A DNA stretch of 56,489 nucleotides from the IMG/VR virus record IMGVR_UViG_3300009149_000038, positions 1 to 56,489 of that record; one strand, given 5' to 3'. Made by a program: the position numbers and the translations under genes. Source of the stretch: a virus (lineage: Duplodnaviria > Caudoviricetes). Positions 7,009-38,877 of the stretch are shown in pieces; the first letter of the stretch is position 1, and each line of letters starts with the position of its first letter. Under the pieces are notes generated by a model. It saw nothing but the letters and a program-made list of their open reading frames with translations, was not told where the DNA came from and ran no database searches.

Positions 7009-7323
7009 CTATTTACGTTTGGAAAGTTTTAAAATAATTGTTAAAAAGTGATTAAGGAGAAATCCTACACCTAATATGCTAGTAAATTTCCAATCTGTTG
7101 AAAATATAGCTTTGAGCCCGAATCCATAAATCAGTGAGGTTGATAGAACTCCAAAGATTTTATATCCTTCGTTTATGAAAAATTGTTTATAAGTCATCCC
7201 AGTTTGATTGACCACTTCTTTATTAGGTTCATAATATGGTTTTGGGGGTAGTGGGGGACTTGGAATTGGTTTCCCACTTCTTACTGCTGACAATCTTTCT
7301 TCTAATGAGTTATGACTTATCAT
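7009..7323 (-). CDS. Hypothetical two-TM membrane protein with Pro-rich N-terminus
   Basis: PIPSPPLPPKP followed by two hydrophobic segments. Confidence 0.6.
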   Translation of the reverse strand: MISHNSLEERLSAVRSGKPIPSPPLPPKPYYEPNKEVVNQTGMTYKQFFINEGYKIFGVLSTSLIYGFGLKAIFSTDWKFTSILGVGFLLNHFLTIILKLSKRK

Positions 7324-7806
7324 TTATTTAATAGTATCTTCTTTCTTCTTAGGTTTCTCCTCCTCGTCCTCAGCAGTTTTTACCTTTCCTGAAATATTAG
7401 ACTTTTTTGGTTTTTCCCCTCCTGTAGATTTTTCAGCTTTCTTTTCTCCTGCTGGCTTATTTCCTTCAACCTCTGCTTGAGTTTGCGCTGTATCTTTCTT
7501 TTCTTTTTTAGCACCTTCGTTGTCAGAAGTTTTGACCTCGCCAAACATACCTGGCTTGAAGTCATTAACAGATTTAAGATTCGTTTGAAGATCATATCCT
7601 GGTTCGAACTTGGATCCTCCCATATTGATTTCGACTTTTACCTCGGTCTTACCTTTTTCATATTCTCTCTTTAGCCAATCAAAAGATTTTTTGTTTTCAT
7701 CAGGAATAAGAATCCCGTCTTTTTGATTTGGTGCTAAATTTCCTTCTTGAGCATTTTCTTCAAGTTTTTCGAGGTATTCGTGTATGTTAAAAGATCCAGC
7801 TTTCAT
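7324..7806 (-). CDS. Hypothetical charged late protein
   Basis: 160 aa, K/E-rich tail, preceded by the GATATATA late-type motif (7827-7834). Confidence 0.7.
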   Translation of the reverse strand: MKAGSFNIHEYLEKLEENAQEGNLAPNQKDGILIPDENKKSFDWLKREYEKGKTEVKVEINMGGSKFEPGYDLQTNLKSVNDFKPGMFGEVKTSDNEGAKKEKKDTAQTQAEVEGNKPAGEKKAEKSTGGEKPKKSNISGKVKTAEDEEEKPKKKEDTIK

Positions 7807-7820
7807 AATTTGATATTTGT

Positions 7821-8273
7821 TTATTTTATATATCCATTTTTTATAATTAACATTTCATTCAAAGATTCAGGAACTAATTTAGATGTGGAATTCTCAAAAA
7901 TGTTTTCTCCCGGTTTTGGCATTCTAACTAAAACCCATTTTTTGGTTATGGGGTTTTTCTTACAGTATTTCGGAAGAAGTCCAGGCATTTTCCAATTTCC
8001 ATATAATTGATTGGTCCAATATCCTCTAGAAGCTCTTAATTTTCCTGATTCTGGTTTCCAATCGCTAGGATATCTTTCATCAGAAGTTTCTCTAAAGTCC
8101 TCTTCTGAATATCCTTTCAAATCATAAATAAAACGTTGTATTTCAGTTAGTCCGGCCCCTTCCTCTCCTTTGCTTCCGATGAATTCAAGTACTTTCCAGG
8201 CCTTAGTTTCCTGTTTTTTTCCATATCCCAATCCCATGGATTTCATTGGATCCTTTCCTCTTTCGAAATTCAT
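7821..8273 (-). CDS. NFERGxDP-motif late protein with a winged-helix-like segment
   Basis: Starts MNFERGKDPMKSMGLG, has C-terminal LVPESLNE and a late motif at 8293-8300. Confidence 0.7.
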   Translation of the reverse strand: MNFERGKDPMKSMGLGYGKKQETKAWKVLEFIGSKGEEGAGLTEIQRFIYDLKGYSEEDFRETSDERYPSDWKPESGKLRASRGYWTNQLYGNWKMPGLLPKYCKKNPITKKWVLVRMPKPGENIFENSTSKLVPESLNEMLIIKNGYIK

Positions 8274-8302
8274 ATACAGATGTTAATTTATCTATATATC
8301 AC

Positions 8303-8333
8303 AAAAAAAAGGCATCCACTTTCGCAGGATGCC
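8303..8333 (-). terminator. Intrinsic terminator ending the tmRNA transcript
   Basis: Minus strand GGCATCC-TGCGAAAGT-GGATGCC followed by T8. Confidence 0.85.
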
Positions 8334-8334
8334 C

Positions 8335-8620
8335 AGTCTCGTGAACTAGGGTGCGTCTTACGCTACCATTGCTAGTTCTCTTGTTTCAAATGCGCCGTTT
8401 AGTGCATTATTAAATATCATCATTACTACTTGCGTTGTCGCTGTCAAAAGCCAGGTCACCCCCAATTCCGGTTTTAAGGAGCCCCGGAAACCCATACCGT
8501 ACTAACGCGACGGGTTAGCGTTCATTGGCAAAACCCCTTTCGGGGAGTTGTGGAGGTGCGGGGAGTCGAACCCCGGTCCAAACGACTGCCTCTCATAACT
8601 AGCTCCGAAGAGCGAGATAC
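8335..8620 (-). ncRNA. ssrA: Circularly permuted (two-piece) tmRNA: acceptor piece ~8620-8551, intervening segment 8550-8464, coding piece 8463-~8335
   Basis: The minus strand has GGACCGGGGTTCGACTCCCCGCACCTCCA (T-arm plus 3' acceptor strand) BEFORE GGGGGTGACCTGGCTTTTGACAGCGAC (5' end). GGGGGTG/CACCTCC forms a 7-bp stem with G3.U70. The tag frame GAFETRELAMVA* lies at 8396-8358. Confidence 0.9.
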
Positions 8621-8690
8621 TTAATTTCTTAACATTCTATTTATGGAAAAGAACGTATATTGTTTTGTTATGGTATTGTTAAAATTATAG

Positions 8691-8720
8691 CCCAATATAA
8701 TAAAAATTTTGCAATTACAA
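8691..8720 (-). promoter_or_regulatory. Putative host-sigma (Bacteroidota-type) promoter for tmRNA
   Basis: TTGTAATT-N12-TTATATTGGG, with the same motif and spacing at 48351-48379 (-) and 50909-50938 (+). Confidence 0.65.
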
Positions 8721-8725
8721 TGATG

Positions 8726-9220
8726 TTAGGACCACTTTTTAGTCCATTTTTGAATCTTTTTTTCTGTCTCTATATAGTCTTGGAGCGAGGACTGTAATGC
8801 TCGTATACGTCCCTCTATGTCATTGTAGTGAGTCTCTATGATGTATTTGATAATGGGATATGGATTATCGAACCATTTTCTTGGACTTTTTGAGTCCATG
8901 GGCATAAAACTCCAGCCCATTCCAGTTATACTTGAATTATTCGAATCTGATTTTTGAATTGGTTTGGTTTGCAGAAATACGGTTTTTCCTTGTATGGATG
9001 GTGGAAGTTCATTATCAACTAAATCCCAGAGAATAGTATCCTTCCATTGCCTTATTGTTTGTTTATTAACTGCTATTCCAAAATCTTCCATTGCTTTTTC
9101 AAAATCCTCTATATATTGGGGTTTTGCCGGTCCATAGCCAACTCCCATTTTTCCTTTAGGATCTCTCCCACGTTCGAAGTTTATGTCTTCCTTTATTAAT
9201 CTAGCCCTCATAAATATCAA
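8726..9220 (-). CDS. NFERGxDP-motif protein (putative internal virion protein)
   Basis: MRARLIKEDINFERGRDPKGKMGVG. The true start is probably the Met of MRAR. Confidence 0.7.
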   Translation of the reverse strand: MIFMRARLIKEDINFERGRDPKGKMGVGYGPAKPQYIEDFEKAMEDFGIAVNKQTIRQWKDTILWDLVDNELPPSIQGKTVFLQTKPIQKSDSNNSSITGMGWSFMPMDSKSPRKWFDNPYPIIKYIIETHYNDIEGRIRALQSSLQDYIETEKKIQKWTKKWS

Positions 9221-10034
9221 ATCTATTTTCCCATTGCTGATCCGTAGCTTCTACTGGACCTCTCAAATAACTTTTAGGCTCCTCATATAACCCATCCTCT
9301 ATTATTTTTCTAACTTTCATAGCTTCGGGCAAATCCCAACATTTATGTAATCCTATAGCATAACCATTTCTCATAAAACTATTTGACCATACTGCAGCTC
9401 TACGTATTTTGTATATTACTACATAATCTTGGGGGTATAAAGTCATTCCACCTTTATATGATGGGGGTTTAAATTTATCTCTAACAATTTTGGATTCTTT
9501 CTTTGGAATTAGAATATCACCAGGCCTCAGTTTATTCCAGGTTCTTTCTCCTATACGCATAGCTCTTTTGGGGTCTTGACCTCTTTCAAAATTAATGGAT
9601 TCATTTACAGGAAAGCCTGGCTCTATTATATCTAAGCGATAATCAAATTTTCTTTTTGTAATATTATCGAAAAAACCAGCTCTTACCCCATACCATTCTA
9701 ATCCTTTTGATCCGGATTCTTTGAATTTTTCTCTTTGATCATAAACCTTTGTTTCACTGGAATGATGATATCTTTTCCATGATATATTTTTTTTTCCGTC
9801 CCCCTGATCCCTAACATCTGTAACTAAAAGCCAATCCATCTTCGCAATAGATAATGCTGAAGAATGATATCCGCCAATAACTCCTGTACTTTTGGTGACC
9901 CCAAAAGATTTTTTGGATCTTAAAATAGCACCGGGCTGTAATGTATCAAAAGATAATCCACCCAGTCCCATTGCACCTAGCGGATCTACTCCTCTTTGGA
10001 AATTTACATTTTCAAAAACATATCGAGCCTTCAC
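9201..10034 (-). CDS. Two-unit NFERGxDP-motif protein (putative internal virion polyprotein)
   Basis: ENVNFQRGVDPLGAMGLG...LQPGAIL and internal NESINFERGQDPKRAMRIG...LRPGDIL. Confidence 0.7.
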   Translation of the reverse strand: MKARYVFENVNFQRGVDPLGAMGLGGLSFDTLQPGAILRSKKSFGVTKSTGVIGGYHSSALSIAKMDWLLVTDVRDQGDGKKNISWKRYHHSSETKVYDQREKFKESGSKGLEWYGVRAGFFDNITKRKFDYRLDIIEPGFPVNESINFERGQDPKRAMRIGERTWNKLRPGDILIPKKESKIVRDKFKPPSYKGGMTLYPQDYVVIYKIRRAAVWSNSFMRNGYAIGLHKCWDLPEAMKVRKIIEDGLYEEPKSYLRGPVEATDQQWENRFDIYEG

Positions 10035-19786: not shown

Positions 19787-19796
19787 AATCTATATA

Positions 19797-20153
19797 TCAA
19801 TAATCCCACCAGGACATGCCCTGAGTTAAATAATTCCAATTTTCAAGTGTTAATCCCATGGATTTAGCAAATTTCTTTGTGGATAAATGCTGTATTAGAT
19901 AAGATGATAATGCCCACAGTCCTAAAGCCACTATAAAGAAGAAAATTCCTAATAATAAATTCCAGAATTCTAAATTGCTATTGTTATAAATAATTCCTAG
20001 AACAGCAACTGATAATATGGAAAAAACAATCGTTACCCCCAGATATTTTTTATAAAAGTGATAAAACCATCTACAATACTTTGGTGGTTTGAAATCTAGA
20101 ATTTTTCTAGTTTCCTCACTGCTTAAATCTTTCCATCTTTTTAATACCGCCAT
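19797..20153 (-). CDS. Two-TM membrane protein
   Basis: Two long hydrophobic segments. Confidence 0.65.
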   Translation of the reverse strand: MAVLKRWKDLSSEETRKILDFKPPKYCRWFYHFYKKYLGVTIVFSILSVAVLGIIYNNSNLEFWNLLLGIFFFIVALGLWALSSYLIQHLSTKKFAKSMGLTLENWNYLTQGMSWWDY

Positions 20154-38805: not shown

Positions 38806-38877
38806 GAAATACTTTTTCTCTATATATCAAAATAGGCGAACCGTAAGATCCGCCTATCTCTTCATGTATGCAAAATA

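Follow-up and report, generated by a model that had tools for sequence, protein, structure and literature searches.

The tmRNA locus in the window

The DNA analysed here, referred to as the window, is the whole 56,489-nucleotide (nt) stretch of the IMG/VR virus record IMGVR_UViG_3300009149_000038 (Duplodnaviria; Caudoviricetes). The element in question is a gene on its minus strand (-) for a circularly permuted, two-piece transfer-messenger RNA (tmRNA), sited in a 320-nt non-coding stretch between the open reading frames (ORFs) 8726-9220 and 7821-8273. When run over all 56,489 bases, ARAGORN reported no tRNA genes and exactly one gene, a permuted tmRNA ('tmRNA*') at 8267-8643 (-), with the tag GAFETRELAMVA. 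The Rfam model RF04321 (tmRNA_permuted) aligned over its full length (model 1-213, 8600-8358) with 51.8 bits against a gathering cut-off of 47 (E 2.6e-07), and it was the sole Rfam family above its gathering score anywhere in the window. Other tmRNA models did less well. The one-piece model RF00023 reached 23.2 bits (cut-off 47) and covered 8548-8595, the T arm only, and the betaproteobacterial model RF01850 reached 33.7 bits (cut-off 84) over model positions 81-162, the tRNA-like domain only. The alphaproteobacterial (RF01849) and cyanobacterial (RF01851) models stayed below their gathering cut-offs, scored lower than the betaproteobacterial model and were suppressed as clan members. ARAGORN and the one-piece and permuted models had been named for a check in an earlier reading made from the sequence alone (hereafter, the sequence-only reading).

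That reading had described a phage-encoded, permuted tmRNA, which is borne out by the two detectors and by covariation among nine sequences (see below). The elements it listed are present almost to the base: the 87-nt spacer, the G3.U70 pair, the discriminator A, the AGCGAC/GUCGUU helix, the stop-codon hairpin and the terminator (Table 1). The tRNA-like domain has a 7-bp acceptor stem, G3.U70, the discriminator A and a T loop of the GUUCGAnUC type. As proposed, CCA is not encoded (A8551 is followed by CAA), and the tag frame runs over 12 codons from GGC to GCG UAA, the same tag as that reported by ARAGORN.

The gene is very small. With only 67 nt between the 5' end of the coding piece and the resume codon, pseudoknot 1 cannot be accommodated, and about 20 nt separate the stop hairpin from the terminator, so that pseudoknots 2-4 are absent. 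The earlier reading had remarked on the lack of space for the latter three but put the mature RNA at ~200 nt; our estimate is about 75 + 160 nt, in total about 235-240 nt. Directly after the acceptor piece, the spacer has a terminator-like CCCC-GAAA-GGGG hairpin followed by UUUU (8541-8533 region), which is not conserved in relatives.

Table 1. Features of the permuted tmRNA locus, in minus-strand order
Feature	Position	Strand	Basis or remark
Promoter-like motif ATAAATAGA	8636..8644	(-)	12 nt upstream of L; ATA[AT]ATA[GT]A
Acceptor piece	8551..8624	(-)	Sequence, ARAGORN, RF04321 alignment, P2 covariation; 5' end inferred
L strand	8624-8616	(-)	In acceptor piece
Hairpin H0, UUCG loop	8613-8602	(-)	Stems vary among relatives, all pair
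P2c'	8601-8595	(-)	In acceptor piece
P2a', GUCGUU, helix-2 strand	8586-8581	(-)	Pairs with AGCGAC 8442-8437
T arm	8575-8559	(-)	Sequence
Acceptor 3' strand CACCUCC	8558-8552	(-)	Sequence
Discriminator A	8551	(-)	Followed by CAA; CCA not encoded
Intervening spacer, 87 nt	8550-8464	(-)	Starts CAA; removal expected
Coding piece	8303..8463	(-)	Sequence, ARAGORN, RF04321, covariation
Acceptor 5' strand GGGGGUG	8463-8457	(-)	Gives G3.U70
P2a, AGCGAC	8442-8437	(-)	Pairs with 8586-8581
P2c	about 8429-8422	(-)	In coding piece
L' strand	8418-8410	(-)	Duplex energies, co-fold
Resume codon GGC	8396-8394	(-)	Sequence
Tag frame, 12 codons, GAFETRELAMVA	8396-8361	(-)	GGC...GCG UAA; ARAGORN
Hairpin P5, GCGU/ACGC	8363-8353	(-)	1 pair changed on both sides
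Stop UAA	8360-8358	(-)	Within hairpin P5
Terminator, 7-bp G+C-rich hairpin + U8	8333-8303	(-)	4 pairs changed on both sides

Conservation and covariation among relatives

Pattern scans of viral and metagenome contigs yielded 8 further distinct sequences, giving 9 with the window. The surroundings are conserved as well: the portal protein is 84-85% identical in L006 and in L009, two of the relatives, with 58-69% identity of downstream ORFs, downstream identities range over 33-80% when L007 is included, and the same gene order recurs in five separate assemblies (L146, L006, L009, L140 and L158).

The RNAalifold prediction for the nine sequences comprises the acceptor stem and T arm, helix 2 in three parts, the hairpin at the stop codon and the terminator. 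In this consensus structure, which derives from the same alignment on which it was tested and is somewhat favoured by that, 94.7% of cells are paired as against 86.5% in shuffled alignments, and both sides are changed in 12 of 44 pairs. In 500 shuffles, the real alignment was not equalled in any of five measures, and structures slid to other registers were only 37-50% paired. The acceptor-stem and T-arm pairs are invariant in 9/9 relatives; covariation is present in P2, and the stop-codon hairpin covaries. As read from the alignment, the stems of H0 differ from one relative to another yet pair in each, for example as GUCC/GGAC or GUCCUUC/GAGGGAC. No both-side change was seen in the nine-sequence alignment for helix 6, a possible small hairpin (CGC/GCG) spanning the resume codon.

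A glycine-start class of permuted tmRNAs

The permuted tmRNAs that we collected split into a Gly-start class (16 distinct sequences) and an Ala-start, alpha/beta-like class (79 distinct), both of which were gathered with patterns fixing T-loop and acceptor sequences and are biased to that extent. The resume codon is GGC in 16/16 Gly-start members, as against GCN in 76/79 and GGC in 0/79 of the Ala-start ones. CCA is encoded in 1/16 versus 78/79. The distance from the 5' end of the coding piece to the resume codon is 61-69 nt (median 63) in the former and has a median of 83 nt in the latter. The tag ends in MAA (13 of 16) or MVA (2 of 16) in the Gly-start class and in LAA in 72/79 Ala-start members, with MVA or LVA endings in 3/79. 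Hence the MVA end of the window's tag, which the sequence-only reading had called non-canonical, has company in both classes.

The tag frame is kept in all 16 Gly-start members and is 10-12 codons long in 15 of them, while the tag body is highly variable from one subclade to the next; the spacer measures 62-87 nt and is conserved in neither length nor sequence. The alpha or beta Rfam cut-offs were reached by 5 of 6 Ala-start loci tested but by none of 12 Gly-start loci (the window and 11 others). The neighbouring genes differ too: Shine-Dalgarno (SD)-like cores precede 26/290 flanking ORFs (9%) in the Gly-start class versus 564/1366 (41%) in the other, at similar G+C. The window bears the informal marks of the Gly-start class, namely GGC, no encoded CCA, the 67-nt distance, L/L' before the resume codon and SD-poor genes.

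The class spans several phage groups, and those of L022, L025, L031 and L123 share 0/12 tested flanking proteins of the window (tblastn). Its presence in unrelated phages means that the window gene is not a one-off invention of its phage.

Similarity searches with the RNA itself found little. The window tmRNA had no blastn match in the phage collection, and three other members of the class, used as queries, aligned there over no more than about 35 nt of the T arm, apart from giving the lead to cr10_1 (see below). A genome scan with the 21-nt 5' end returned only two matches, both one-piece tmRNAs of metagenome-assembled genomes, one of Gracilibacteria (L138 5152-5617) and one of Peribacteria (L139 223-673). 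Beyond an exact match in the first 21 nt, these genes bear no relation to the window gene and possess pseudoknots and long, unrelated tags. We rejected this match as a clue to origin and read it as convergence in the tRNA-like domain.

Some further RNAs came to light in the scanned contigs. At L004 825-1096 there is a permuted tmRNA that RF04321 scores at 59.8 bits and ARAGORN missed; on inspection by eye, its frame starts with Gly and spans about 16 codons. Two viral contigs with permuted tmRNAs also carry a manA RNA motif (L013 1828-2038, 72.6 bits) and a DUF805b RNA motif (L031 8511-8548, 37.5 bits).

Predicted pairing of the two pieces

Apart from the acceptor stem and helix 2, the two pieces were found to have one more complementary pair of strands, such that L, at the acceptor piece's 5' end, is predicted to pair with L', just before the resume codon, and not with the 3' tail. 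Cognate L/L' duplexes from 11 representatives average -8.6 kcal/mol versus -6.0 kcal/mol for non-cognate ones, and only 87 of 20000 permutations were as good. In the window's subclade, 3 of 6 core positions are changed on both sides; in other subclades the strands are quite different, still complementary, and located 13-16 nt before the resume codon. L/L' likewise appears when the two pieces of the window are co-folded without constraints. A column-wise helix search on alignment A1 missed both L/L' and H0 because MAFFT sets them in shifted registers, and L/L' was for this reason tested by duplex energies. In addition, a conserved CUAGUU(A/G) after H0 pairs with (A/G)GUA(G/A)UA of the coding piece in 9/9 sequences (helix 1, 97.8% paired). 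Together, L/L', H0 and the P2c part of helix 2 would make a three-way junction.

An alternative architecture had been put forward in the sequence-only reading, in which the far ends of the pieces pair. In this version of the same gene, UCUCG and CUAG around the UUCG hairpin would pair with CGAGA and CUAG of the 3' tail and so close off the mRNA-like domain, an arrangement shared with some other two-piece tmRNAs. The tail duplex is indeed strong in the window (-16.5 kcal/mol versus -11.7 kcal/mol for the L/L' alternative), and the tail motif GAGA(C/U) is kept in 8/9 relatives, with GAAAC in L009 and L166 and GAGCC in L146. Across the 11 representatives, however, cognate tail pairings average -7.6 kcal/mol and non-cognate ones -6.6 kcal/mol; permutation gave equally good values 1845 times in 20000, and covariation lends the pairing no support. 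Moreover, the best tail pairing would destroy H0 in L007 and L140, and CUAG/CUAG occurs only in the window and L146. Failing the cognate versus non-cognate test, far-end pairing was rejected as the main structure, and we regard this architecture as unlikely.

The carrier phage and its probable host

The carrier is a linear IMG/VR record with a CheckV completeness of 14%, which would put the full genome at roughly 400 kb. Its genes include one for a T4-type portal protein (PF07230, E 2.8e-53) and others for a helicase of the DnaB type, a subunit of an SbcC-like nuclease and part of a type II topoisomerase. Among 745 matching phage records, the portal is nearest to that of LR756500, an uncultured 462-kb phage (42.5%), and to those of the Prevotella Lak megaphages (42-43%). 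Lak and the largest phages form one clade with predicted Bacteroidetes hosts, according to the available text of Al-Shayeb et al. (PMC7162821), which also notes tmRNAs and SmpB in huge phages; the form of the tmRNA gene is not stated there.

An SD-like core at -20 to -5 is found before 5 of 63 window ORFs, and the upstream regions are A-rich. Genes poor in SD motifs are typical of Bacteroidota. Based on the Lak-like portal, the SD-poor ORFs and a Gly-start tag like that of Bacteroides SsrA, the host of the phage probably belongs to the Bacteroidota, in keeping with the earlier view of the locus.

Expression signals and transcript data

The promoter-like motif upstream of the gene follows the pattern ATA[AT]ATA[GT]A, which has 16 copies in the window. 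Intergenic DNA makes up 9.5% of the window and contains ten of them, which mostly stand 2-66 nt before a same-strand start codon. The exact form TGATATATAGA occurs three times (-), at 8291-8301, 19789-19799 and 38819-38829, besides 13 further motif sites, and a copy at 8299-8291 stands after the tmRNA terminator and before the next gene. From this distribution, the motif is probably the phage's own promoter type. Two other candidates were discarded. The lone minus-strand sigma-70 match (8447-8419) lies inside the coding piece, where it coincides with conserved structural motifs and is put down to chance, and the T4 late promoter motif TATAAATA shows no enrichment, with 9 sites where 11.1 would be expected.

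In a wetland metatranscriptome from a different study, a 254-nt contig aligns to 8325-8577 (4 differences, 1 gap), with no coverage of the flanking genes. This hints at transcription of a close relative's gene into a single precursor that includes the spacer. Of the contigs in the window's likely source run, one covers 7300-8577 and a second covers 8551-9300, each with 0 differences; their 27-nt overlap (8551-8577) supports the gene order. Soil, marine-sediment and marine runs (X2, X4 and X5) covered small shares of the locus, mostly the T-arm region only, so that no conclusion on habitat can be drawn; a 228-nt piece in X2 (8330-8557, 6 differences) is DNA of a close relative.

Relation to known tmRNAs

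Two-piece tmRNAs of phages have been published. The available text of Buchholz et al. (PMC9004378) describes them in OM43 phage Melnitz, pelagimyophages and cyanophages, and counts 53 of 133 unique phage tmRNAs as two-piece by ARAGORN. Like the window gene, those genes are phage-encoded, permuted and detected by ARAGORN, and they reside in T4-like aquatic myophages; unlike it, they are related in that account to alphaproteobacterial, betaproteobacterial/gammaproteobacterial and cyanobacterial lineages. The 2025 tmRNA database, as far as its available text goes, holds 79 phage sequences, and RF04321 was built from alpha, beta and cyano seeds only (PMC11915505).

The two-piece tmRNAs modelled by RF01850 and RF01849 share with the window gene the gene order, the tRNA-like domain and the two-strand helix 2. 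The alpha model also resembles it in having, immediately 5' of the acceptor piece's helix-2 strands, a hairpin comparable to H0. The beta and RF04321 models continue after helix 2 with a hairpin (the first stem of pseudoknot 1) that has no counterpart in the window, where L/L' occupies that place.

The crAss-like phage cr10_1 (MT774382, 26352-26737; Crassvirales, Suoliviridae) has a gene labelled 'transfer-messenger RNA, SsrA' in GenBank. It resembles the window gene in being short and permuted by ARAGORN, in resuming at GGC with a Gly-start tag, GNNFVTDYTQLAVA, and in having no encoded CCA. It differs in that blastn aligns the T-arm region only (37 nt, 89%), the acceptor stem has another sequence and the tag is longer. 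An L/L'-like pairing could be traced by eye only, and the phage belongs to a different order. Crassvirales infect Bacteroidota.

The megaphages closest by portal have one-piece tmRNAs. Those of Lak-A2, Lak-B4 and LR756500 are about 390-410 nt long and score 47-95 bits with RF00023, whereas RF04321 matches 0/3. They belong to kin phages and, as in the window, CCA is not encoded; their tags end in RMAA. LR756500 resumes at GGC (GNNAEMRMAA), and the Lak-A2 tag is DDEIDFRMAA. Otherwise, reading side by side revealed no obvious likeness in sequence. In Lak-A2 (L131 142603-142997) and Lak-B4 (L132 416686-417095), the one-piece gene is found 340-400 nt upstream of the gene for the portal, and in the window's clade the permuted gene is found ~1.7 kb downstream of that for the portal.

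Extreme reduction is also seen in mycobacteriophage DS6A, whose tmRNA relative consists of the tRNA-like domain only, has no tag frame and is thought to inhibit tmRNA, according to the available text of PMC4131195; the window gene, in contrast, keeps a conserved tag frame. A DS6A-like case was noticed in a viral contig (L008 5373-5455 (-)), where an 83-nt RF00023-type match (68.6 bits, model 1-374) comprising the tRNA-like domain only lies beside a tRNA-Trp gene.

Origin of the Gly-start class

It may be that the Gly-start class represents a fourth, independent permutation, derived from a one-piece tmRNA of the Bacteroidota type and confined to phages (megaphages, crAss-like phages and others), with all four pseudoknots lost and pseudoknot 1 replaced by the intermolecular helix and three-way junction. 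We hold this tentatively, at slightly below an even chance. The Gly starts, the lack of CCA, the SD-poor flanks and the likenesses to one-piece tmRNAs of megaphages and Bacteroides fit such an origin. Indeed, Bacteroides thetaiotaomicron, among 14 control genomes, matches the one-piece and not the permuted model, and GETNYALAA, the SsrA tag native to Bacteroides, starts with Gly, as given in the available text of a preprint (10.1101/2025.03.18.644028). On the other hand, the hairpin 5' of the helix-2 strands in the alpha model makes a shared origin with the known two-piece lineages possible, and the break positions in the three known lineages were taken for this comparison from Rfam structure lines only. 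As for the independent permutation in a phage that the sequence-only reading had suggested, the window gene does fall below the alpha, beta and cyano cut-offs; the permutation would not be an event unique to this phage, since the class occurs in several phage groups.

Discussion

We consider it likely that the window holds a functioning gene for a two-piece tmRNA, belonging to a large phage that is related to Lak, has a T4-type portal and most likely infects Bacteroidota. The case is built on the anatomy, conservation and covariation of the gene, its membership in a class and the kinship of the phage, from which we take the gene to be real and conserved and, probably, functional.

The gene would work as follows. 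A single transcript would begin a few bases before 8624 and end at the intrinsic terminator near 8303. RNase P would cleave before G8463, and the acceptor piece would be trimmed to A8551, where the CCA-adding enzyme of the host would add CCA. The pieces would then be held together by the 7-bp acceptor stem, by the long interrupted helix 2 (P2a-c) and by L/L', 13 nt before the resume codon, so that the three-way junction of L/L', H0 and P2c would occupy the place where other tmRNAs have pseudoknot 1, with no pseudoknots left. G3.U70 and the discriminator A would allow charging by host AlaRS, and host SmpB and EF-Tu would deliver the RNA to stalled ribosomes. Translation would resume at GGC, adding (A)GAFETRELAMVA, and tagged products would end ...AGAFETRELAMVA (...ELAMVA). 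The likely benefit to the phage would be that ribosomes are kept free and truncated products cleared while host and phage mRNAs decay during infection. A link to the cutting of host RNAs by defence nucleases, as had been suggested, is speculation.

Other explanations of the gene were weighed. One is that it serves in rescue without degradation, the tag either not routing proteins to host proteases or giving them a phage-specific fate. The MAA/MVA endings do differ from the LAA that prevails in the Ala-start class, and the tag body is variable between subclades. Nevertheless, the last two residues remain AA or VA, as in ordinary tags, and the tags of the related one-piece megaphage genes likewise end in RMAA, which makes this version of events improbable.

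Less probable still, and in our judgment quite unlikely, is that the RNA is a decoy which soaks up host SmpB or blocks trans-translation in the host while its tag frame stays untranslated, as proposed for DS6A. Phage tmRNA-like genes with the tRNA-like domain only do exist, both in the available text of PMC4131195 and as the 83-nt case in L008, and the lack of an SmpB gene in the window counts in favour of a decoy. Such an RNA, however, would not need an mRNA-like part, and this part is full in all 16 class members, with GGC in each, 10-12 codons in 15, an MAA or MVA ending in 15 and a covarying stop hairpin. Finally, chance resemblance, a pseudogene or the assembly artefact that had been a worry is largely refuted and extremely improbable, for even if the RF04321 score is near its cut-off and no single contig of the likely source run crosses 8551-8577 in both directions, two independent detectors agree, the source-run contigs overlap without differences, separate assemblies keep the same order and covariation supports the structure.

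Several points nonetheless weigh against a working tmRNA of a Bacteroidota phage. First, the RF04321 score exceeds its cut-off by just 4.8 bits. Second, as to signals for expression, the promoter claimed in the sequence-only reading has no sigma-70-like or otherwise canonical match in a scan upstream of the gene (-), and a terminator scan did not list the 8333-8303 hairpin, although the latter is explained by a loop of 9 nt where the scan allows 3-8. Third, the 254-nt contig from the RNA library crosses the spacer at a depth of 3.2 and has no ends, and it represents at most a precursor or contaminating DNA rather than the mature pieces. Fourth, a search for SmpB genes gave 0 matches in the window, so that tmRNA function would depend on host SmpB or on the remaining ~86% of the genome. 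Fifth, the host assignment is indirect. Lastly, we infer the transcript ends, processing, charging, tagging and benefit to the phage from the sequence.

As to what is known and what is new, phage two-piece tmRNAs are known, the cr10_1 record already annotates a Gly-start permuted gene in a crAss-like phage, and standard tools find the window gene. The novelty that had been left to a database search is thereby reduced, and the gain from the window alone is small. In what was read of the literature on phage, huge-phage, Maribacter-phage, crAss-like and two-piece tmRNAs, we found no description of a permuted lineage of Bacteroidota phages, while the supplementary tables of PMC9004378 (S1) and PMC11915505 (S2) may list such genes. 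The compact Gly-start lineage and the three-way junction beside the resume codon were not found described in this literature, and we regard their novelty as modest.

For annotation, a GGC resume codon, the lack of encoded CCA and SD-poor neighbours are marks that set such genes apart from alpha/beta-like phage tmRNAs. At ~235 nt, the window RNA would, if the estimate is true, be among the smallest natural tmRNAs that still have a tag frame. If the class works as proposed, it would offer a natural 'minimal tmRNA' devoid of pseudoknots, in which the tRNA-like domain is accompanied by a single long helix, a three-way junction and a free mRNA-like tail. That two RNAs would be held together partly beside the resume codon bears on the question of what positions this codon on the ribosome. 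More broadly, the gene is a further sign that large Bacteroidota phages supply ribosome-rescue RNA themselves.

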